This document shows, piece after piece, positions 12,591 to 62,468 of a stretch of 64,000 bases of DNA. Position 1 is the first letter of the stretch, and every line of letters starts with the position of its first letter. Made by a program: the position numbers and the translations under genes. The notes beneath the pieces are model-generated. The model did not search any database. It saw only the letters and a program-made list of their open reading frames with translations, and had not been told where the DNA came from. The stretch is from Escherichia phage vB-Eco-KMB40. The stretch lies in sequence record OR539220.1, one strand, 5' to 3'.

Positions 12591-14099
12591 ATGGATATTA
12601 AAGTACATTTTCACGACTTCAGTCATGTACGCATCGATTGTGAAGAGAGCACGTTCCACGAATTAAGAGATTTCTTTTCGTTTGAGGCAGATGGATATAG
12701 GTTTAATCCTCGCTTCAGATATGGCAACTGGGATGGACGAATCCGTCTTTTAGATTATAATCGCCTTCTTCCATTCGGCTTAGTCGGGCAAATTAAAAAG
12801 TTCTGTGATAACTTTGGCTATAAAGCCTGGATTGACCCACAAATTAACGAAAAAGAAGAATTATCAAGAAAAGATTTTGATGAATGGCTTTCTAAATTAG
12901 AAATCTATTCGGGAAATAAAAGAATTGAACCACACTGGTATCAAAAAGATGCAGTGTTCGAAGGATTAGTTAATCGTCGTAGAATTCTTAATCTTCCAAC
13001 ATCTGCAGGTAAATCTTTAATTCAGGCTCTGCTTGCGCGATATTATTTGGAAAATTATGAAGGTAAAATTCTTATCATTGTTCCAACAACTGCTCTGACA
13101 ACTCAGATGGCTGATGACTTTGTTGATTATCGTTTATTCAGTCACGCAATGATAAAGAAAATTGGTGGCGGAGCATCAAAAGATGATAAATATAAAAATG
13201 ATGCACCAGTCGTTGTTGGTACATGGCAAACTGTAGTAAAACAACCAAAAGAATGGTTCTCACAGTTTGGAATGATGATGAATGATGAATGCCATTTAGC
13301 AACAGGAAAAAGTATTTCATCTATTATATCAGGTTTAAATAACTGCATGTTCAAATTTGGTCTATCTGGTTCATTACGTGACGGCAAAGCCAATATCATG
13401 CAGTATGTTGGAATGTTTGGCGAAATATTTAAGCCAGTAACGACTTCTAAATTAATGGAAGATGGGCAAGTAACTGAGCTAAAAATTAATAGTATTTTTC
13501 TTCGTTATCCTGATGAGTTCACTACTAAATTAAAGGGAAAAACTTACCAAGAAGAAATAAAAATTATTACTGGGCTCAGTAAAAGAAATAAATGGATCGC
13601 TAAATTAGCTATTAAGCTTGCGCAAAAAGATGAAAACGCTTTTGTCATGTTTAAACATGTATCGCACGGTAAAGCTATTTTCGATTTAATTAAAAATGAA
13701 TACGATAAAGTTTATTACGTATCAGGGGAAGTTGATACCGAAACACGAAATATAATGAAAACCTTAGCTGAAAATGGTAAAGGAATAATTATAGTAGCTA
13801 GTTATGGTGTATTTTCTACTGGTATTTCAGTTAAAAATCTGCATCACGTTGTTTTAGCACACGGTGTTAAATCAAAAATCATTGTATTACAAACAATCGG
13901 TCGTGTATTACGTAAGCATGGTTCTAAGACAATAGCAACAGTCTGGGACCTCATAGATGACTGTGGTGTCAAGCCAAAATCTGCTAATACTAAAAAGAAA
14001 TATGTTCACTTGAACTATCTTTTAAAACATGGCATTGATCGTATTCAGCGCTACGCAGATGAAAAATTTAATTACGTAATGAAAACAGTTAATTTATAA
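12591..14099 (+). CDS. uvsW: UvsW DNA/RNA helicase
   Basis: 502 aa; Walker A PTSAGKS and DECH box; matches T4 UvsW length. Confidence 0.9.
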   Translation: MDIKVHFHDFSHVRIDCEESTFHELRDFFSFEADGYRFNPRFRYGNWDGRIRLLDYNRLLPFGLVGQIKKFCDNFGYKAWIDPQINEKEELSRKDFDEWLSKLEIYSGNKRIEPHWYQKDAVFEGLVNRRRILNLPTSAGKSLIQALLARYYLENYEGKILIIVPTTALTTQMADDFVDYRLFSHAMIKKIGGGASKDDKYKNDAPVVVGTWQTVVKQPKEWFSQFGMMMNDECHLATGKSISSIISGLNNCMFKFGLSGSLRDGKANIMQYVGMFGEIFKPVTTSKLMEDGQVTELKINSIFLRYPDEFTTKLKGKTYQEEIKIITGLSKRNKWIAKLAIKLAQKDENAFVMFKHVSHGKAIFDLIKNEYDKVYYVSGEVDTETRNIMKTLAENGKGIIIVASYGVFSTGISVKNLHHVVLAHGVKSKIIVLQTIGRVLRKHGSKTIATVWDLIDDCGVKPKSANTKKKYVHLNYLLKHGIDRIQRYADEKFNYVMKTVNL

Positions 14100-51940: not shown

Positions 51941-54900
51941 ATGGCCGAGATTAAAAGAAAGTTCAGAGCAGAAGACGGTCTGGACGCAGGTGGCGATAAA
52001 ATAATCAACGTAGCTTTAGCTGATCGTACCGTAGGAACTGACGGTGTTAACGTTGATTACTTAATTCAAGAAAACACAGTTCAACAATATGATCCAACTC
52101 GTGGATATTTAAAAGATTTTGTAATCATTTATGATAACCGCTTTTGGGCTGCTATAAATGATATTCCAAAACCAGCAGGAGCTTTTAATAGCGTACGATG
52201 GAGAGCGTTACGTACTGATGCAAACTGGACAACTGTTTCGTCAGGACCTTATCAATTAAAATCAGGCGAATCGATTTCAGTTAACACTGCAGCGGGTAAT
52301 GACATTACATTTACTTTGCCATCTTCTCCGATTGATGGTGATACTATCGTTCTCCAAGATATTGGAGGAAAACCTGGAGTTAACCAGGTTTTAATTACAG
52401 CTCCGGTACAAAGCATTGTAAACTTTAGAGGTCAACAAGTACGCTCAGTACTAATGACTCATCCAAAATCACAGATAGTTTTAATTTTTAGTAATCGTCT
52501 GTGGCAAATGTATGTTGCTGATTATAGCAGAGAAGCGGCAGTTGTAACGCCAGCGAGTCTTTATCAAGCGCAATCAAACGATTTTATCGTGCGTAGATTT
52601 ACTTCTGCTTCAGCAATTAATATTAAACTTCCTAGATTTGCTAATCATGGGGATATTATTAATTTTGTTGATTTAGATAAATTAAATCCGTTATATCATA
52701 CTATCGTTACTACATACGATGAAACGACTTCAGTACAAGAAGTTGGAACTCATTCCATTGAAGGCCGTACATCTATTGATGGTTTCTTAATGTTTGATGA
52801 TAATGAGAAATTGTGGAGATTATTTGACGGGGATAGTAAAGCACGTTTACGCATTATAACAACTAATTCAAACATCCGTCCAAATGAAGAAGTCATGGTA
52901 TTTGGCGCGAATAATGGAACAACTCAAACAATTGAACTTCAGCTTCCGACTGATATTTCTGTTGGTGATACTGTCAAAATTTCCATGAATTACATGAGAA
53001 AAGGACAAACAGTTAAAATCAAAGCTGCCGGTGAAGATAAAATTGCTTCTTCAGTTCAATTGTTGCAATTTCCAAAACGTTCAGAATACCCACCTGAAAC
53101 TAAATGGGTGACTGTTCAAGAATTAGTTTTTAATGGCGAAACCAATTATGTTCCAGTTTTACAGCTTGCTTATATCGAAGATTCCGATGGAAAATATTGG
53201 GTTGTACAGCAAAACGTTCCAACTGTAGAAAGAGTAGACTCTTTAAATAATTCTACTAGAGCAAGATTAGGTGTAATTGCATTAGCTACACAGGCTCAAG
53301 CTAATGCAGATTTAGAAAATTCTCCACAAAAAGAATTGGCAATTACTCCAGAAACGTTAGCTAATCGTACTGCTACAGAAACTCGTAGAGGTATTGCAAG
53401 AATAGCAACAACTGCGCAAGTAAACCAGGATACCACATTCTCTTTTGCAGATGACCTTATCATTACTCCTAAAAAGCTGAATGAAAGAACTGCTACAGAA
53501 ACTCGCAGAGGTGTCGCAGAAATTGCTACGCAGCAGGAAACTAATACAGGTACTGATGATACTACAATCATCACTCCTAAAAAGCTTCAAGCTCGACAAG
53601 GTTCTGAATCATTATCTGGTATTGTAACCTTTGTATCTACCGCAGGAGCTACTCCAGCTTCTAGTCGTGAATTAAATGGTACAAATGTTTACAATAAAAA
53701 CACTAATAATTTAGTTGTTTCGCCTAAAGCTTTAGATCAATATAAAGCTACTCCAACGCAACAAGGTGCAGTAATTTTAGCAGTTGAAAGTGAAGTAATT
53801 GCTGGACAGAGTCAAGAAGGATGGGCAAATGCGGTTGTAACGCCAGAAACGTTACATAAAAAGACATCAACTGATGGAAGAATTGGTTTAATTGAAATTG
53901 CTACGCAAAGTGAAGTTAATACAGGAACTGATTATACTCGCGCAGTCACTCCTAAAACTTTAAATGACCGTAGAGCAACTGAAAGTTTAAGTGGTATAGC
54001 TGAAATTGCTACGCAAGTTGAATTCGACGCAGGCGTCGACGATACTCGTATCTCTACACCATTAAAAATTAAAACTAGATTTAATAGTACTGATCGTACT
54101 TCTGTTGTTGCTCTATCTGGATTAGTTGAATCAGGAACTCTCTGGGACCATTATACCCTTAATATTCTTGAAGCAAATGAGACACAACGTGGTACACTTC
54201 GTGTGGCTACACAAGTTGAAGCTGCTGCCGGAAAATTAGATAATGTTTTAATAACTCCTAAAAAGCTTTTAGGTACTAAATCTACCGAATCGCAAGAAGG
54301 TGTTATTAAAGTTGCAACTCAGTCTGAAACTGTGGCTGGAACGTCAGCGAACACTGCTGTATCTCCAAAAAATTTAAAATGGATTGTGCAGAGTGAACCT
54401 ACCTGGGCAGCTACTACTGCAGTAAGAGGTTTTGTTAAAACTTCATCTGGTTCAATTACATTTGTCGGTAATGATACAGTCGGTTCTACCCAAGATTTAG
54501 AACTGTATGAGAAAAATAGCTATGCAGTATCACCATACGAATTAAACCGTGTATTAGCAAATTATTTACCGTTAAAAGCAAAAGCTGCTGATAGTAATTT
54601 ATTGGATGGTCTAGATTCATCTCAGTTCATTCGTAGGGACATTGCGCAGACGGTTAATGGTTCACTAACCTTAACCCAACAAACGAATCTGAGTGCCCCT
54701 CTTGTATCATCTAGTACTGCTACGTTTGGTGGTTCAGTTTCGGCAAATAGTGTACTAACTATTTCTAATACTGGAACAGAAACTCATCTGATTTTTGAGA
54801 AAGGACCTCAAACTGGAACTAACCAAGCACAGACGGTGACTATTAGAGTGTGGGGTAATCAATTTAGTGGTGAATCAGATGCAACGCGTTCTACTGTATT

Positions 54901-55810
54901 TGAAGTTAGTGATGAAACATCTTATCACTTTTATTCTCAACGCGATAAAGATGGTAATATAGCATTTAGCATTAATGGTACTGTAATGCCAATAAATGTG
55001 AATGCTTTAGGTTCTTTGAACGCGAACGGCGCTGCAACATTCGGCAGTTCAGTTACTGCTAATGGCGAATTTATCAGTAAATCGTCGAATGCTTTTAGAG
55101 CAATAAACGGTGATTATGGATTCTTTATTCGTAATGATGCTGCTAACACCTATTTTATGCTTACTGCATCAGGTGATCAGACTGGTGGATTTAATGGATT
55201 ACGTCCTTTAGCTATTAATAATGCATCTGGCCAAGTAACGATTGGCGAAAGCTTAATCATTGCCAAAGGTGCTACTATAAATTCAGGTGGTTTGACTGTT
55301 AACTCGAGAATTCGTTCTCAGGGTACTAAAACATCTGATTTATACACCCGCGCGCCAACATCTGATACAGTAGGATTCTGGTCAATCGATATTAACGATT
55401 CAGCCACTTATAACCAGTTCCCTGGTTATTTTAAAATGGTTGAAAAAACTAATGAAGTGACTGGACTTCCATACTTAGAACGTGGCGAAGAAGTTAAATC
55501 TCCTGGTACACTGACTCAGTTTGGTAACACACTTGATTCGCTTTACCAAGATTGGATTACTTATCCAACAACACCAGAAGCACGTACCACTCGTTGGACA
55601 CGCACATGGCAGAAAACCAAAAACTCTTGGTCAAGTTTTGTTCAGGTATTTGATGGGGGTAACCCTCCTCAGCCATCTGATATTGGTGCTTTACCATCTG
55701 ATAATGCTATAATGGGGAATCTTACTATTCGTGATTTCTTACGAATTGGTAATGTTCGCATTGTTCCTGACCCAGTGAATAAAACGGTTAAATTTGAATG
55801 GGTTGAATAA
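51941..55810 (+). CDS. 34: Long tail fibre proximal subunit gp34
   Basis: 1289 aa as T4 gp34; internal ~40-aa fibre repeats; late promoter upstream. Confidence 0.9.
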   Translation: MAEIKRKFRAEDGLDAGGDKIINVALADRTVGTDGVNVDYLIQENTVQQYDPTRGYLKDFVIIYDNRFWAAINDIPKPAGAFNSVRWRALRTDANWTTVSSGPYQLKSGESISVNTAAGNDITFTLPSSPIDGDTIVLQDIGGKPGVNQVLITAPVQSIVNFRGQQVRSVLMTHPKSQIVLIFSNRLWQMYVADYSREAAVVTPASLYQAQSNDFIVRRFTSASAINIKLPRFANHGDIINFVDLDKLNPLYHTIVTTYDETTSVQEVGTHSIEGRTSIDGFLMFDDNEKLWRLFDGDSKARLRIITTNSNIRPNEEVMVFGANNGTTQTIELQLPTDISVGDTVKISMNYMRKGQTVKIKAAGEDKIASSVQLLQFPKRSEYPPETKWVTVQELVFNGETNYVPVLQLAYIEDSDGKYWVVQQNVPTVERVDSLNNSTRARLGVIALATQAQANADLENSPQKELAITPETLANRTATETRRGIARIATTAQVNQDTTFSFADDLIITPKKLNERTATETRRGVAEIATQQETNTGTDDTTIITPKKLQARQGSESLSGIVTFVSTAGATPASSRELNGTNVYNKNTNNLVVSPKALDQYKATPTQQGAVILAVESEVIAGQSQEGWANAVVTPETLHKKTSTDGRIGLIEIATQSEVNTGTDYTRAVTPKTLNDRRATESLSGIAEIATQVEFDAGVDDTRISTPLKIKTRFNSTDRTSVVALSGLVESGTLWDHYTLNILEANETQRGTLRVATQVEAAAGKLDNVLITPKKLLGTKSTESQEGVIKVATQSETVAGTSANTAVSPKNLKWIVQSEPTWAATTAVRGFVKTSSGSITFVGNDTVGSTQDLELYEKNSYAVSPYELNRVLANYLPLKAKAADSNLLDGLDSSQFIRRDIAQTVNGSLTLTQQTNLSAPLVSSSTATFGGSVSANSVLTISNTGTETHLIFEKGPQTGTNQAQTVTIRVWGNQFSGESDATRSTVFEVSDETSYHFYSQRDKDGNIAFSINGTVMPINVNALGSLNANGAATFGSSVTANGEFISKSSNAFRAINGDYGFFIRNDAANTYFMLTASGDQTGGFNGLRPLAINNASGQVTIGESLIIAKGATINSGGLTVNSRIRSQGTKTSDLYTRAPTSDTVGFWSIDINDSATYNQFPGYFKMVEKTNEVTGLPYLERGEEVKSPGTLTQFGNTLDSLYQDWITYPTTPEARTTRWTRTWQKTKNSWSSFVQVFDGGNPPQPSDIGALPSDNAIMGNLTIRDFLRIGNVRIVPDPVNKTVKFEWVE

Positions 55811-55818
55811 GAGGTATT

Positions 55819-56934
55819 ATGGAAAAATTTATGGCAGAGTTTGGACAAGGATACGTCCAAACGCCATTTTTATCGGAAAGCAATTCAGTAAGATACAAAA
55901 TAAGTATAGCGGGTTCTTGCCCGCTTTCTACCGCAGGACCATATGTTAAATTTCAGGATAATCCTGTAGGAAATCAAACATTTAGCACAGGTCTTCATTT
56001 AAGAGTTTTTGATCCTTCTACAGGAGCATTAGTTGATAGTAAGTCATATGCTTTTTCTACTTCAAATGATACTACATCAACTGCTTTTGTTAGTTTCATG
56101 AATTCTTTGACGAATAATAGAATTGTTGCTATATTAACTAGCGGAAAGGTTAATTTTCCTCCTGAAGTAGTATCTTGGTTAAGAACAGCAGGAACGTCTG
56201 CTTTTCCATCTGACTCTGTACTGTCAAGATTTGATGTATCATATGCTGCTTTTTACACTTCTTCTAAAAGAGCTATCGCATTAGAGCATGTTAAACTGAG
56301 TAACAGAAAAAGCACAGATGATTATCAAACTATTTTAGATGTTGTATTTGACAGTTTAGAAGACGTTGGAGCTACCGGGTTTCCAAGAAGAACATATGAA
56401 AGCGTTGAGCAGTTTATGTCAGAGGTTGGTGGAACTAATAACGAAATTGCGCGTCTACCAACTTCAGCTGCTATAAGTAAATTATCTGATTATAATTTAA
56501 TTCCAGGCGATGTTCTTTATCTTAAAGCACAACTATATGCTGATGCCGATTTACTTGCTCTTGGAACTACGAATATATCCATTAGATTTTATAATGAATC
56601 GGATGGATATATTTCTTCAACATATGCTGAGTTTACTGGTCAAGCTGGGTCATGGGAATTAAAGGAAGACTATGTAGTTGTTCCTGAAAATGCGGTAGGA
56701 TTTACGATATATGCACAAAGAACTGCCCAAGCAGGTCAAGGAGGCATGAGAAATTTAAGCTTTTCTGAAGTATCAAGAAATGGCGGCATTTCAAAACCTG
56801 CTGAATTTGGCGTCAACGGTATTCGCGTTAATTATGTCTGTGAATCCGCTTCGCCTCCAGATATAATGGTACTTCCTACACAAGCATCGTCTAAAACTGG
56901 TAAAGTGTTTGGACAAGAATTTAGAGAAGTTTAA
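55819..56934 (+). CDS. 35: Long tail fibre hinge protein gp35
   Basis: 371 aa; position and length as T4 gp35. Confidence 0.85.
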   Translation: MEKFMAEFGQGYVQTPFLSESNSVRYKISIAGSCPLSTAGPYVKFQDNPVGNQTFSTGLHLRVFDPSTGALVDSKSYAFSTSNDTTSTAFVSFMNSLTNNRIVAILTSGKVNFPPEVVSWLRTAGTSAFPSDSVLSRFDVSYAAFYTSSKRAIALEHVKLSNRKSTDDYQTILDVVFDSLEDVGATGFPRRTYESVEQFMSEVGGTNNEIARLPTSAAISKLSDYNLIPGDVLYLKAQLYADADLLALGTTNISIRFYNESDGYISSTYAEFTGQAGSWELKEDYVVVPENAVGFTIYAQRTAQAGQGGMRNLSFSEVSRNGGISKPAEFGVNGIRVNYVCESASPPDIMVLPTQASSKTGKVFGQEFREV

Positions 56935-56996: not shown

Positions 56997-57653
56997 ATGG
57001 CTGATTTAAAAGTAGGTTCAACAACCGGAGGCTCTGTCATTTGGCATCAAGGAAATTTTCCATTGAATCCAGCTGGTGACGATGTACTCTATAAATCATT
57101 TAAAATATATTCAGAATATAATAAACCACAAGCTGCTGATAACGATTTCGTTTCTAAAGCTAATGGTGGTACTTATTTAAATAAAGTAATTTTTAATAAA
57201 GGAATGACTGTTCCTGGCGCAGGGTCAGGTGATAATGGTATTTTTGCTGGTCCTGGTGATAGTGCCACGTATGATACTACAAATATGGATATTGTTTCGT
57301 GGTATGGTATTGGTTTTAAATCATCACAAGGAACAGCAGGTAGAACTGTAGTAATTAACACGCGAAATGGAGATATTAGCTCAAAGGGTGTAATTGAAGC
57401 ATCACAAATCCGTGTAACTTCGTTATCACCGGTAAATAATTATGACCTTACGCGGAAAGATTATGTTGATGGAGCAATAAATATTGTTACAGCAAACGCA
57501 AACTCTAGGGTATTACGCTCTGGAGACACTATGACAGGAAATTTAACTGCGCCAAACCTTTTTTCACAGAATCCTGCGTCTCAACCCTCGCATGTTCCAC
57601 GATTTGATCAAATTGTTATTAAGGATTCTGTTCAAGATTTCGGCTATTATTAA
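56997..57653 (+). CDS. 36: Long tail fibre distal connector gp36
   Basis: 218 aa; late promoter and terminator hairpin upstream. Confidence 0.85.
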   Translation: MADLKVGSTTGGSVIWHQGNFPLNPAGDDVLYKSFKIYSEYNKPQAADNDFVSKANGGTYLNKVIFNKGMTVPGAGSGDNGIFAGPGDSATYDTTNMDIVSWYGIGFKSSQGTAGRTVVINTRNGDISSKGVIEASQIRVTSLSPVNNYDLTRKDYVDGAINIVTANANSRVLRSGDTMTGNLTAPNLFSQNPASQPSHVPRFDQIVIKDSVQDFGYY

Positions 57654-57661
57654 GAGGACTT

Positions 57662-60600
57662 ATGGCTACTTTAAAACAAATACAATTTAAAAGAAGCAAA
57701 ACTGCAGGAGCACGTCCTGCCGCTTCAGTATTAGCCGAAGGCGAATTGGCTATAAACTTAAAAGACCGTGTACTTTTTACTAAAGATGACCAAGGAAATA
57801 TTATTGATCTGGGTTTTGCTAAAGGCGGTAGTATTGACGGGAATGTTATTCATACAGGCAATTATAACCAAACTGGCGATTATACTTTAGATGGCACCTT
57901 CACTCAGACTGGTAATTTTAATTTAACTGGTATTGCTCGAGTAACTCGCGATATTATTGCCGCTGGGCAGATTATGACTGAAGGCGGAGAACTTATTACA
58001 AAAAGTTCAGGTACAGCGCATGTTCGTTTTTTCGATGGCAATAGTCGCGAACGTGGAATCATTTATTCCCCGGCTAATGATGGTTTAACTACACAAGTAC
58101 TTAATATCAGGGTTCAAGACTACGCCGCTGGTAGCGAAAGCACTTATGCATTTTCAGGCAGTGGCCTATTTACTTCACCTGAAGTATCAGCATGGAAATC
58201 TATTTCGTCTCCACAAATTCTGACCGACAAAGTTATTACAAACGGGAAGAAGGCAGGAGATTATGATATCTATTCATTAGCAAATAACACCCCATTATCT
58301 GAAAGCACTACTGCTATTAATCATCTTCGTGTCATGCGTAATGCCGTAGGTGCAGGTATTTTTCATGAGGTTAAAGACAATGATGGGATAACTTGGTATA
58401 CAGGTGATGGACTTGACGCTTATCTTTGGTCGTTTACATGGTCCGGTGGATTGAAAGCGGGTCATTCTATTTCTATAGGCACCCCAGGCGGCCCTAAAGG
58501 ATATTCTGAATTAGGAACGTCCTCAATTGCTTTAGGAGATAATGATACTGGGTTTAAATGGCATCAAGACGGATATTATTTTAGCGTTAATAATGGAACG
58601 AAAACATTTTTATTTAGTCCTAGCGAAACAACTAGCCTAAGAAAATTTGTAGCTGGATATTCTACCAACGGAACCGATTTAACTACTCCTCCAACTGAAA
58701 ACTATGCTCTTGCTACTGTAGTGACATACCACGATAATAACGCGTTTGGAGATGGTCAGACTCTTTTAGGATATTATCAAGGCGGTAATTATCATCACTA
58801 TTTCCGTGGTAAGGGTACTACAAACATTAATACTCATGGCGGTTTGTTAGTTACTCCTGGTAATATTGACGTTATTGGTGGTTCTGTTAATATCGATGGT
58901 ATAAATAATGCTTCTACACTGTTGTTTAGAGGTAACACAACTGGTAGTAGTTCAGTTGATAATATGACAATTTCTGTTTGGGGTAATACGTTTACTAATC
59001 CTAGTGTAGGTAATCGTAAAAATGTCATGGAAATTTCTGATCCAACTAGTTGGATGAGCTATATTCAAAGACTTACAACAGGTGAAGTAGAAATGAACGT
59101 TAACGGTTCATTTGAATCATCTGGTGTTACTGCTGGAAATAGGGGAGTTCACACAACAGGCGAAATTTCATCTGGAGCAGTGAATGCTCTTCGCATTTGG
59201 AATGCAGATTATGGAGCTATTTTTAGACGTTCAGAAGGAAGTCTTCATATTATTCCAACTGCTTATGGTGAAGGTAAAAATGGTGATATCGGTCCACTTC
59301 GCCCGTTTAGTATGGCTTTAGATACTGGTAAAGTTACTATTCCAGATTTACAATCAAGTTACAATACGTTCGCAGCAAACGGCTATATTAAATTTACTGG
59401 TCATGGCGCAGGCGCTGGTGGTTATGATATTCAATATGTTCAAGCGGCTCCTATTTTCCAGGAAATCGATGATGATGCTGTAAGCAAATATTATCCTATT
59501 GTTAAACAGAAGTTTTTAAACGGTAAAGCCGTTTGGTCTTTAGGTACTGAAATTAATTCGGGTACATTCGTTATTCATCATCTGAAAGAAGATGGATCAC
59601 AAGGCCATACGTCTCGTTTTAATCAAGACGGTACTGTTAACTTCCCTGATAACGTTCAGGTCGGCGGCGGTGAAGCTACTATTGCTCGTAATGGTAATAT
59701 TTTCTCGGATATTTGGAAATCGTTTACTTCTGCAGGAGACACTACAAATATTCGCGATGCTATTGCGACTCGTGTTTCGAAAGAAGGCGACACGATGACA
59801 GGTCGCTTAACTCTTAATGCAAACTCTGATGCCATCGTTATTAATAGCACGGCAACCGAATCTGGCTATTTGAAAGGACAAAAAGCAGGCGTTGATAACT
59901 GGTATGTAGGTAATGGTGGTGCTGATAATGCCATATCGTTTTATAGTTTCCAAAATAGATCAGGCATATATGTTAATAATGGTGGTGATATTGCTTTAAA
60001 CCCGGAAGGGTCTGCCACTTTTAATTTTAATAGGGACCGAATTTATATAAATGGGTCAGTCTGGACCGCACACCAGGCTGGTGACTGGGGTAACCAATGG
60101 CGTCAAGAAGCTCCTATATTTGTGGATTTTGGTAGTGTCGGTAATGATAGTTATTATCCTATTATTAAAGGAAAATCTGTTATTACGAATGAAGGATACA
60201 TATCTGGTGTTGATTTCGGTATGCGACGCATTCCTAATAACTGGGCTCAGGCTATTATCCGTGTTGGTAACCAGGAAAATGCTAGCGATCCGCAAGCTAT
60301 CTTCGAATTCCACTATAATGGAAACATGTACGTTCCTGACATGGTTAAAGCTGGAGTAAGAATATCAGCTGGTGGAGGTGACCCTGTATGGACAGGCGCA
60401 TGTGTTGTTATTGGTGATAATGACACCGGATTAGTTCATGGTGGTGACGGCCGAATCAATATGGTTGCCAATGGTATACATATTGCAAACTGGGGAGCAG
60501 GCTATCAATCTCATCCTGGGCTTTGGGATTCAACCGGTGCTTTTTGGACAGAAGTTGGAAGAGCTATCGTTTCTCATGGGCATCTCGTTCAGGCAAATGA

Positions 60601-60973
60601 TAGTTATTCAACGTTTGTCCGTGATGTTTATGTCCGTTCTGATATTCGTGTTAAAAAAGACCTCGTTAAATTTGAAAATGCTTCTCAGAAGCTTTCTAAA
60701 ATTAACGGTTACACTTATATGCAGAAACGTGGAACGGACGAAGAAGGCAATCAGAAATGGGAACCTAACGCCGGTTTGATAGCCCAAGAAGTTCAAGCTA
60801 TTTTACCAGAATTAGTTGAAGGTGACCCTGATGGCGAAGCTTTACTTCGTTTGAACTATAACGGTGTAATTGGTTTAAATACAGCTGCAATAAATGAACA
60901 TACTACAGAAATTGCGGAACTTAAATCAGAAATTGAAGAACTTAAAGCATTAGTTAAATCATTGTTAAAATAA
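57662..60973 (+). CDS. 37: Long tail fibre distal subunit gp37 with C-terminal intramolecular-chaperone-like domain
   Basis: 1103 aa; last 111 aa begin SDIRVKKDL...[16 protein letters not shown] and end in a coiled coil, resembling S74-type chaperone/autocleavage domains. Confidence 0.85.
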
Positions 60974-60978
60974 TAAGA

Positions 60979-60992
60979 GGGGCTTCTGCCCC
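60979..60992 (+). other. Hairpin between genes 37 and 38 (no T-run)
   Basis: GGGGC-TTCT-GCCCC immediately before the gene 38 RBS. Confidence 0.4.
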
Positions 60993-61004
60993 TTGGAGGT
61001 TTAT

Positions 61005-61781
61005 ATGGCAGTAACAGGACCGTGGGTAGGATCGTCTGCAGTAGTTAATACAGGACAAAATTGGATGGGTGGCGCGGCCCAACGATTAAGAATGGGCATT
61101 CCGTTCTGGATGAGTAATATGATAGGCCGATCTGTTGAAATAATTCACACGCTTGGAGCAGACCATAACTTCAATGGTCAATGGTTCCGAGATAGATGTT
61201 TTGAGGCAGGTAGTGCACCTATAGTGTTTAATATCACTGGAGATTTAGTATCATATTCTAAAGATGTTCCTTTATTCTTCATGTACGGGGATACACCAAA
61301 TGAATATGTTCAGTTGAATATACATGGCGTAACGATGTATGGTCGTGGCGGGAACGGCGGTAGCAATAGTCCTGGCTCAGCTGGGGGTCATTGTATTCAA
61401 AATGATATTGGTGGGAGACTAAGAATTAATAATGGCGGAGCTATTGCAGGTGGCGGTGGCGGCGGCGGTGGCGGTTATTATTCTCCTTTTTCACAAATGA
61501 GATTAACCTTTGGCGGTGGCGGTGGGCGTCCGTTTGGTGCACCTGGCGGATCTATTGATATGCAATCAGGCGCAACTGCTGGTACTATTTCTGCGCCTGG
61601 AGCAGGGTCTGTGAACGGTATCTATAATGGCGGGAATGGTGGTGAAGTTGGCTCCGCAGGAGGTAGATGTAATATTCGTGGTCAAGGATATGAATACGAT
61701 GGCGGAGCTGCTGGTTATGCCGTCATAGGGTCTACGCCGACATGGCAAAACGTTGGAGCAATATATGGTCCAAGAGTATAA
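61005..61781 (+). CDS. 38: Tail fibre adhesin gp38 (T2-type, glycine-rich motifs)
   Basis: ATG 61005 with GGAGG RBS (ORF track starts at TTG 60993); N-terminus [21 protein letters not shown] and poly-Gly blocks as remembered for T2 gp38. Confidence 0.85.
61449..61475 (+). repeat. GGY trinucleotide tract encoding nine consecutive glycines in gp38
   Basis: GGT GGC GGT GGC GGC GGC GGT GGC GGT in frame. Confidence 0.8.
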
Positions 61782-61811: not shown

Positions 61812-62468
61812 ATGGCAGCACCTAGAATATCATTTTCGCCCTCTGATATTCTGTTGGGTGTTCTAGATCGCTTGTTCAAAGATAACGCTACCGGGAAAGT
61901 TCTTGCTTCCCGGGTAGCTGTCGTAATTCTTTTATTTATGATGGCGATTGTTTGGTATAGGGGAGATAGTTTCTTTGAGTACTATAAGCAATCAAAGTAT
62001 GAAACATACAGTGAAATTATTGAAAAGGAAAGAAATGCACGCTTTGAATCTGTCGCCCTGGAACAACTCCAGATAGTTCATATATCATCTGAGGCAGACT
62101 TTAGTGCGGTGTATTCTTTCCGCCCTAAAAACTTAAACTATTTTGTTGATATTATAGCATATGAAGGAAAATTACCTTCAACAATAAGTGAAAAATCACT
62201 TGGAGGATATCCTGTTGATAAAACTATGGATGAATATACAGTTCATTTAAATGGACGTCATTATTATTCCAACTCAAAATTTGCTTTTTTACCAACTAAA
62301 AAGCCTACTCCCGAGATAAACTACATGTACAGTTGTCCATATTTTAATTTGGATAATATCTATGCTGGAACGATAACCATGTACTGGTATAGAAATGATC
62401 ATATAAGTAATGACCGCCTTGAATCAATATGTGCTCAGGCGGCCAGAATATTAGGAAGGGCTAAATAA
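61812..62468 (+). CDS. t: Holin T
   Basis: 218 aa as T4 holin; single N-terminal TM segment VAVVILLFMMAIVWY. Confidence 0.9.
   Translation: MAAPRISFSPSDILLGVLDRLFKDNATGKVLASRVAVVILLFMMAIVWYRGDSFFEYYKQSKYETYSEIIEKERNARFESVALEQLQIVHISSEADFSAVYSFRPKNLNYFVDIIAYEGKLPSTISEKSLGGYPVDKTMDEYTVHLNGRHYYSNSKFAFLPTKKPTPEINYMYSCPYFNLDNIYAGTITMYWYRNDHISNDRLESICAQAARILGRAK

Follow-up and report, generated by a model that had tools for sequence, protein, structure and literature searches.

The C-terminal Peptidase_S74 domain of gp37 and the adjacent gp38 adhesin of Escherichia phage vB-Eco-KMB40 suggest a self-cleaved, gp38-capped tail-fibre tip

Long tail-fibre gene cluster of KMB40

The window analyzed here is a stretch of 64,000 nucleotides from Escherichia phage vB-Eco-KMB40 (sequence record OR539220.1), and the T-even long-tail-fibre cluster is located at its end. 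The cluster contains gene 34 (51941..55810), gene 35 (55819..56934), gene 36 (56997..57653), gene 37 (57662..60973, + strand), gene 38 (61005..61781, + strand) and gene t, which encodes a holin (61812..62468, + strand; PF11031 Phage_holin_T, 2.6e-117). Gene t is the canonical end of the 34-35-36-37-38-t cluster, and the order of the genes is the same in T2, T6 and T4; after gene t, asiA- and arn-like genes follow on the opposite strand.

Gene 37 encodes the precursor of the long tail fibre distal subunit, which is 1103 residues in length, followed by a stop codon. The family phrog_1699 ('long tail fiber protein distal subunit') covers gp37 from end to end with an E-value of 0. Two further open reading frames, 60438..60779 (+ strand) and 60608..60796 (− strand), overlap its 3′ part; both were set aside and treated as mechanical, out-of-frame readings inside a strongly supported coding region. 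At the nucleotide level, the gp37 region is 95.3% identical to that of the Escherichia phages FL23 and FL44 (Tequatrovirus). In 127 phage records, the gene 37-gene 38 stretch is covered to 80% or more, and the surrounding 25 kb are ∼95% identical to many Tequatrovirus genomes. ARAGORN identified no tRNA genes in the whole 64-kb window. No Rfam family reached the gathering threshold in the window either, so no group I introns were recognised in the nrd/td region that it covers.

Gene 37 ends with a double stop, TAATAA (60971-60976), and is separated from gene 38 by a gap of 31 nt. One stem-loop, GAGGGGC-UUCU-GCCCCUU (60977..60994, + strand), sits in this gap, between the stop of gene 37 and the ribosome-binding site of gene 38 (GGAGG, 60995-60999), which precedes the ATG codon at 61005. 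The folding energy is −14.3 kcal/mol for the 46-nt context, with a z-score of only −1.55. FL23 (UUCG loop), T2 (GAGGGC-UUCG-GCCCUC) and T6 (AAGGGGC-UUU-GCCCCUU) have hairpins there as well, and the sequences of their stems differ; the comparison indicates that the structure of the intergenic hairpin, rather than its sequence, is conserved. The hairpin may serve mRNA stability or translational coupling, in the manner of the mRNA-stabilising tetraloop hairpins of T4. A function as intrinsic terminator of gene 37 found no support: the + strand contains no T-run, the ribosome-binding site of gene 38 comes directly after it, and the terminator scan flags the − strand only.

C-terminal domain of gp37 and its predicted cleavage site

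The preliminary description had assigned an intramolecular-chaperone-like domain to the last 111 residues of gp37. Residue 993 starts at nucleotide 60638 and residue 1103 ends at nucleotide 60970, followed by TAA at 60971-60973; the assigned interval (60638..60970, + strand) is thus exact to the base, and the peptide strings that were quoted for it are correct. The domain, Ser993-Lys1103, forms the extreme C-terminus of gp37 (the last 111 of 1103 residues), right after a segment that is homologous to the trimeric β-helix of S16 (6f45).

In an HMM search, the 111-residue fragment matched the Pfam family PF13884 (Peptidase_S74, 'chaperone of endosialidase') with an E-value of 2.3e-14 and a score of 53.8 bits (gathering cut-off 22). 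Residues 1-60 of the fragment are aligned with profile positions 1-57/58, and profile position 1 corresponds to Ser993. Approximately 30 PHROG tail-fibre families also match the terminal stretch of gp37, always via their own C-termini. The database search yielded 25 homologues, all of which are pre-annotated with PF13884; most are short or partial ORFs, enough for constructing a profile, but too little for a family survey. Among solved structures, this homologue profile matched S16 gp37 (6f45_A, 5.4e-34), the ICA domain of MyRF (7dc3, 3.2e-8) and the tail fibre 8jov (5.6e-6). The match to the chaperone domain of the GA-1 neck appendage (3gud) is non-significant, with an E-value of 0.24; the 3gud chain begins with SDERHK, which is the released N-terminus.

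The fold of residues 973-1103 was predicted by AlphaFold2 (131-residue query, mean pLDDT 83.8); the model is a monomer, while the functional unit is a trimer. It contains one small β-subdomain, followed by one single long helix, residues 1066-1102 (60857..60967, + strand; model positions 94-130), with a pLDDT of ∼95. Foldseek search against the PDB returned only two meaningful matches, the MyRF ICA domain 7dc3 (E 1e-6, TM 0.68) and 3gw6, the 'Intramolecular Chaperone' of endosialidase (endoNF), which was matched with a probability of 0.93-0.99 and a moderate E-value of ∼0.04. The rmsd of the 3gw6 match is high, because the arrangement of the helix differs. The C-terminal helix is amphipathic and has a heptad pattern; as read from the sequence, the hydrophobic residues Ile1077, Ile1084, Leu1087, Ile1091, Leu1094, Val1098 and Leu1101 follow a 3-4-3-4 spacing. 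Presumably, three such helices form the coiled coil of the trimeric chaperone domain. Both the resemblance to the S74/endosialidase chaperones and the heptad-like ending in the preliminary description are thus borne out, the former by the Pfam match and the predicted fold, the latter by the hydrophobic repeat within the predicted helix.

The Ser-Asp-x-Arg-x-Lys motif, which the preliminary description names as the point before which such chaperone domains are cleaved, is present in gp37, and it starts at the first residue of the domain (DVYVR992^S993DIRVKK, where ^ denotes the predicted autocleavage site R992^S993, 60635..60640, + strand). Ser993 (60638-60640) is the putative nucleophile and Lys998 (60653-60655) is the putative general base. 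The S993-D-I-R-V-K998 stretch fits the Ser/Lys+5 arrangement of the family, in which Ser comes first in the domain. RSDxRxK is common to all the aligned homologues with a complete N-terminus, and Lys998 is nearly invariant. Among the named relatives, SDxRxK is shared by gp37, S16, T2, T6, 8jov and GA-1, whereas MyRF (7dc3) has ADLRAK at the aligned position.

In S16 gp37, the last 113 residues are removed by autocleavage at DLNVS^SDRRIKK, which exposes the dock for gp38; the corresponding site in T4-like Yersinia (fPS) phages is DVYIR^SDGRLKI (PMC7917993). The gp37 proteins of T2 and T6 are also cleaved and then capped by gp38 (PMC3157838). The KMB40 sequence DVYVR992^S993DIRVKK aligns with both the S16 and the fPS sites, and on this alignment we infer that gp37 of KMB40 follows the same order, cleavage first and capping afterwards. 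Residues 881-992 (60302..60637, + strand) would then stay on the mature fibre as its distal β-helical tip. The tip is homologous to the crystallised distal fragment of S16 gp37 (6f45_A, E 3.9e-44), and the GDNDTGL...GGDG motif is common to both. By analogy with the docking role described for the gp37 tip (PMC7917993), its end, DVYVR992, is predicted to be the docking surface of gp38. We consider it highly probable (roughly 0.9) that gp37 is self-cleaved at R992-S993, that the chaperone domains are released, and that the tip is capped by gp38.

Two other readings of the same domain were weighed. Cleavage of the KMB40 protein is deduced from homology, and some PF13884 proteins in the databases (P0021, P0024 and P0025) are without an N-terminal SDxRxK; the S74-like domain might therefore be a degenerate remnant, which remains uncleaved on the mature fibre, while gp38 binds elsewhere or only assists in the assembly. 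However, gp37 has retained the two catalytic residues and the motif in full, its domain shares 57% identity with the autocleaving domain of S16 and 97% with its PP01 counterpart, and the five residues preceding the site (DVYVR) correspond to DVYIR, the conserved docking strand, all of which makes a remnant of this type very improbable. In the second reading, gp37 is cut by a separate protease of the phage or the host, and the C-terminal domain functions as a folding scaffold only. The computed data are equally compatible with autocatalysis and with cleavage in trans; for T2, the 1986 study of Drexler et al. reportedly established the processing and identified no protease, which counts in favour of a separate enzyme. 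Against it, autoproteolysis via the Ser/Lys+5 dyad is a defining property of the S74 family, and the work of Schwarzer (2007), Schulz (2010) and Garcia-Doval (2015) is said to have shown it experimentally in endoNF, T5 pb1 and MyRF. The dyad is conserved in gp37, and the S16 domain was autocleaved in recombinant expression (PMC7917993). Cleavage by a separate protease is thus highly unlikely in our opinion, and self-cleavage at R992-S993 is the reading followed below.

gp38 adhesin and proposed capping of the fibre tip

Gene 38 is located immediately downstream of gene 37 and upstream of gene t, as in T2 and T6. It encodes the tail-fibre tip adhesin, 258 residues plus a stop codon, which belongs to the Pfam families GP38 (PF05268, E 1.5e-71, 241.2 bits) and Gp38_N (PF21721, E 1.4e-21, 76.6 bits; both cut-offs are 25), and to phrog_2056 ('host specificity', 1.1e-110). 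In the PDB, gp38 of PP01 (9v85, 7.9e-81) and gp38 of S16 (6f45_D, 2.1e-52) were matched; gp38 of the deposited phage 121/2022-2B is 99.6% identical. KMB40 gp38 is composed of one N-terminal attachment domain (residues 1-45), one β-helix and one polyglycine (GRM/HVS) receptor-binding domain. In the C-terminal half, the glycine-rich runs are conserved compared to T6, T2, S16 and PP01, and the variable loops are located between them. The three tryptophans Trp7, Trp20 and Trp35 are invariant across the gp38 proteins of KMB40, T6 and T2, and they align with those of S16; three Trp residues of the N-terminal helical bundle serve as the plugs between the adhesin and the tip of gp37 (PMC6851490).

The TTG codon at 60993, four codons upstream of the ATG at 61005, is where the program-made ORF list begins gp38; it was rejected as the start. 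The product of the ATG, which has GGAGG in front of it, begins with MAVTGPW and is in register with residue 1 of S16 gp38 and with position 1 of Gp38_N. The GenBank record of T6 also has a longer gp38, its annotated start being 13711, compared to the ATG at 13723 in the T6 sequence used for comparison; mis-annotation of the gene 38 start codon is a minor but recurrent matter.

No similarity was observed between KMB40 gp38 and T4 gp38 (183 residues; BLASTP E 1.9), and T4 gp38 is without any Pfam match. Different from KMB40 gp37, which carries PF13884, T4 gp37 contains Collar and Phage_fiber domains and is without PF13884. The T4-type organisation, in which gp38 is the chaperone and gp37, with a receptor-binding needle of its own and no S74 domain, is the adhesin, is ruled out by these two comparisons, and the PF05268 and PF21721 matches agree with the earlier description of the product of this gene as a glycine-rich adhesin. 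The same data bear on the suspicion that the C-terminus of gp37 resembles the S74 family by chance, or through a low-complexity coiled coil, and that gp38 is of the T4 chaperone type. The coiled-coil-like tail of gp37 and one weak PDB match (E 0.53), to a peptide designed as a coiled coil, are all that speaks for it; however, the Pfam match falls within the first 60 residues, a non-helical part, and its score is more than twice the gathering threshold, the fold search is concordant, and gp38 belongs to the adhesin families (1e-71). Chance resemblance is thereby refuted, and we give it virtually no weight.

The cleave-then-cap reading can be extended into a series of steps, in which cleavage, domain release, capping and the identity of the receptor are carried over from the S16, T2 and T6 homologues. 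gp37 would be synthesised as a 1103-residue precursor with a 111-residue C-terminal intramolecular chaperone. Three chaperone domains would associate, their C-terminal helices forming the coiled coil; the chaperone trimer would bring the three chains into register and nucleate folding of the preceding triple β-helical tip. Once the trimer is folded, Ser993, activated by Lys998 in a Ser-Lys dyad, would cut the R992-S993 bond in each of the chains. The chaperone domains, ∼12.5 kDa in size, would then dissociate, and one flat tip ending in ...DVYVR992 would be exposed. One single gp38 molecule could dock on the exposed tip via Trp7, Trp20 and Trp35 of its N-terminal helical bundle, and its polyglycine-sandwich domain would display the hypervariable loops, which would bind the outer-membrane receptor, probably Tsx.

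Tsx is our best guess, and it is held loosely. The loops of gp38 share 94% identity with their T6 counterparts (residues 121-258, with 8 differing positions), which makes Tsx the probable receptor; the T6-like adhesins that have been tested (RB3, RB5, RB6, RB7, RB14 and RB27) all use Tsx (Trojet et al.). A few substitutions in the HVS are enough to add OmpA as a receptor or to switch to it (Trojet et al.), and this Tsx/OmpA effect was confirmed by gp38 swaps in a 2026 preprint. The call of Tsx is soft because so few substitutions can switch a T6-like adhesin to OmpA, and KMB40 gp38 differs from that of T6 at eight positions. For annotation, the mature gp37 would be residues 1-992, accompanied by one released C-terminal chaperone domain. 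For the prediction or engineering of host range, gp38, not gp37, is the receptor-binding protein.

Comparison with relatives and possible mosaic origin

The gp37-gp38 tip of S16 (PDB 6F45; Dunne et al. 2018) is organised like that of KMB40. Both contain one β-helical GDNDTG tip and one chaperone domain of ∼111-113 residues with SDxRxKK, and S16 gp38 also possesses the three Trp prongs and the polyglycine sandwich. The residues preceding the cleavage site are different, DLNVS in S16 and DVYVR in KMB40. In addition to the 57% identity of the chaperone domain (993-1103), S16 is 48.5% identical to KMB40 in the aligned part of the pre-cleavage tip (881-992), 64% in the attachment domain of gp38 (1-45), 46% in its β-helix (46-120) and 54% in its receptor-binding part (121-258). 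The last value reflects hypervariable loops that differ between the two adhesins, so a different receptor is expected. The chaperone domain of PP01 (PDB 9V85) is 97.3% identical to that of KMB40, and the β-helix region of its gp38 is nearly identical, whereas the hypervariable loops differ; PP01 gp38 binds OmpC of O157 (PMC12892980).

Compared to S16, gp38 of T6 is much closer in the receptor-binding part. It is of the T6 type, which binds Tsx and includes RB14, RB9 and PST, and it is 86% identical to KMB40 gp38 overall (60% in residues 1-45 and 88% in residues 46-120); the RB14 and RB9 proteins are ∼91% identical. Like KMB40 gp37, T6 gp37 ends in PF13884 (residues 882-940); the C-terminal regions of the two proteins are only ∼29-34% identical, with 34% for both the chaperone domain and the pre-cleavage tip. 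Different from KMB40, T6 gp37 is 994 residues in length and is without the S16-like tip of ∼110 residues, and the first 45 residues of its gp38 differ by a 2-residue indel.

T2 defines the class with cleaved gp37 and a gp38 cap (Drexler, Riede & Henning 1986; Riede et al. 1987; PMC3157838). PF13884 is located at residues 1243-1300 of T2 gp37, where the sequence reads NVYIR-SDIRLK. The identity to KMB40 is 34% in the chaperone domain, 34% in the pre-cleavage tip and 51% in gp38 (49%, 52% and 54% in residues 1-45, 46-120 and 121-258, respectively). The receptors of T2 are FadL and OmpF. The preliminary description had called the host-range module of KMB40 T2-like. As the name of a generic class, the adhesin type, this can be retained; module by module it does not hold, the tip and the chaperone being of the S16/PP01 type and the specificity of gp38 being of the T6 type. 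A specifically T2-like module was rejected, on the basis of the identity of 34% in the chaperone domain and 54% in the receptor-binding part of gp38.

Beyond the T-even phages, the domain family of KMB40 (MEROPS S74/PF13884) includes endoNF (K1F), the T5 L-shaped tail fibre pb1, the GA-1 neck appendage and the ICA domain of the eukaryotic protein MyRF. Like KMB40 gp37, these proteins possess the Ser/Lys+5 motif at the start of the domain, and one β-rich subdomain followed by one C-terminal helix. They differ in the upstream part, which is a sialidase, a T5 fibre tip or a transcription factor, and they have no separate adhesin that caps the cleaved end. The family is represented in 1156 phage records, the T5-like L-shaped fibres among them, and the chaperone variant of KMB40 is present at ≥95% identity in at least 171 phage records. 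The fibre tip of KMB40 is of the ordinary T2/T6/S16 type, as in hundreds of sequenced phages, and the cleave-then-cap mechanism, the Pfam family and the crystal structure have all been published; the value of our analysis is one of annotation, and nothing new is added to the biology of T-even tail fibres.

The module-wise identities are accompanied by two local observations. In gp37, residues ∼847-992 (60200..60640) consist of one T6-type segment, VDFGMRRIP..., and one extra S16/PP01-like tip of ∼110 residues (GDNDTGL...), which follows it and lies before the cleavage site; in T6 gp37, the VDFGMRRIP... segment directly precedes the chaperone domain. The extra tip at this joint accounts for the difference in length between KMB40 gp37 (1103 residues) and T6 gp37 (994 residues). 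Judged from the alignment, KMB40 gp37 looks like a T6-type shaft that was extended by a tip of the S16/PP01 type. In gp38, residues 1-45 (61005..61139) are the least T6-like part of the protein, 60% identical compared to 88-94% for the rest, and they have a 2-residue deletion that is shared with S16 (GPW instead of GVPGW). The pattern is consistent with an N-terminus of gp38 that co-varies with the type of gp37 tip, and also with recombination at about residue 45.

The host-range module may thus be a three-way mosaic, in which a T6-like shaft is combined with a tip and chaperone of the S16/PP01 type, and with a gp38 whose attachment domain tracks S16/PP01 and whose specificity is of the T6 type. 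The chaperone and the tip would move jointly with residues 1 to ∼45 of gp38, as an exchangeable 'lock-and-key' cassette, with the recombination joint inside gp38. We give this proposal an even chance; if true, it would illustrate how adhesins and fibres are paired anew in T-even phages. Exchange of gp38 as a module has been on record since 2011, and the combination observed in KMB40 is already present in many sequenced phages.
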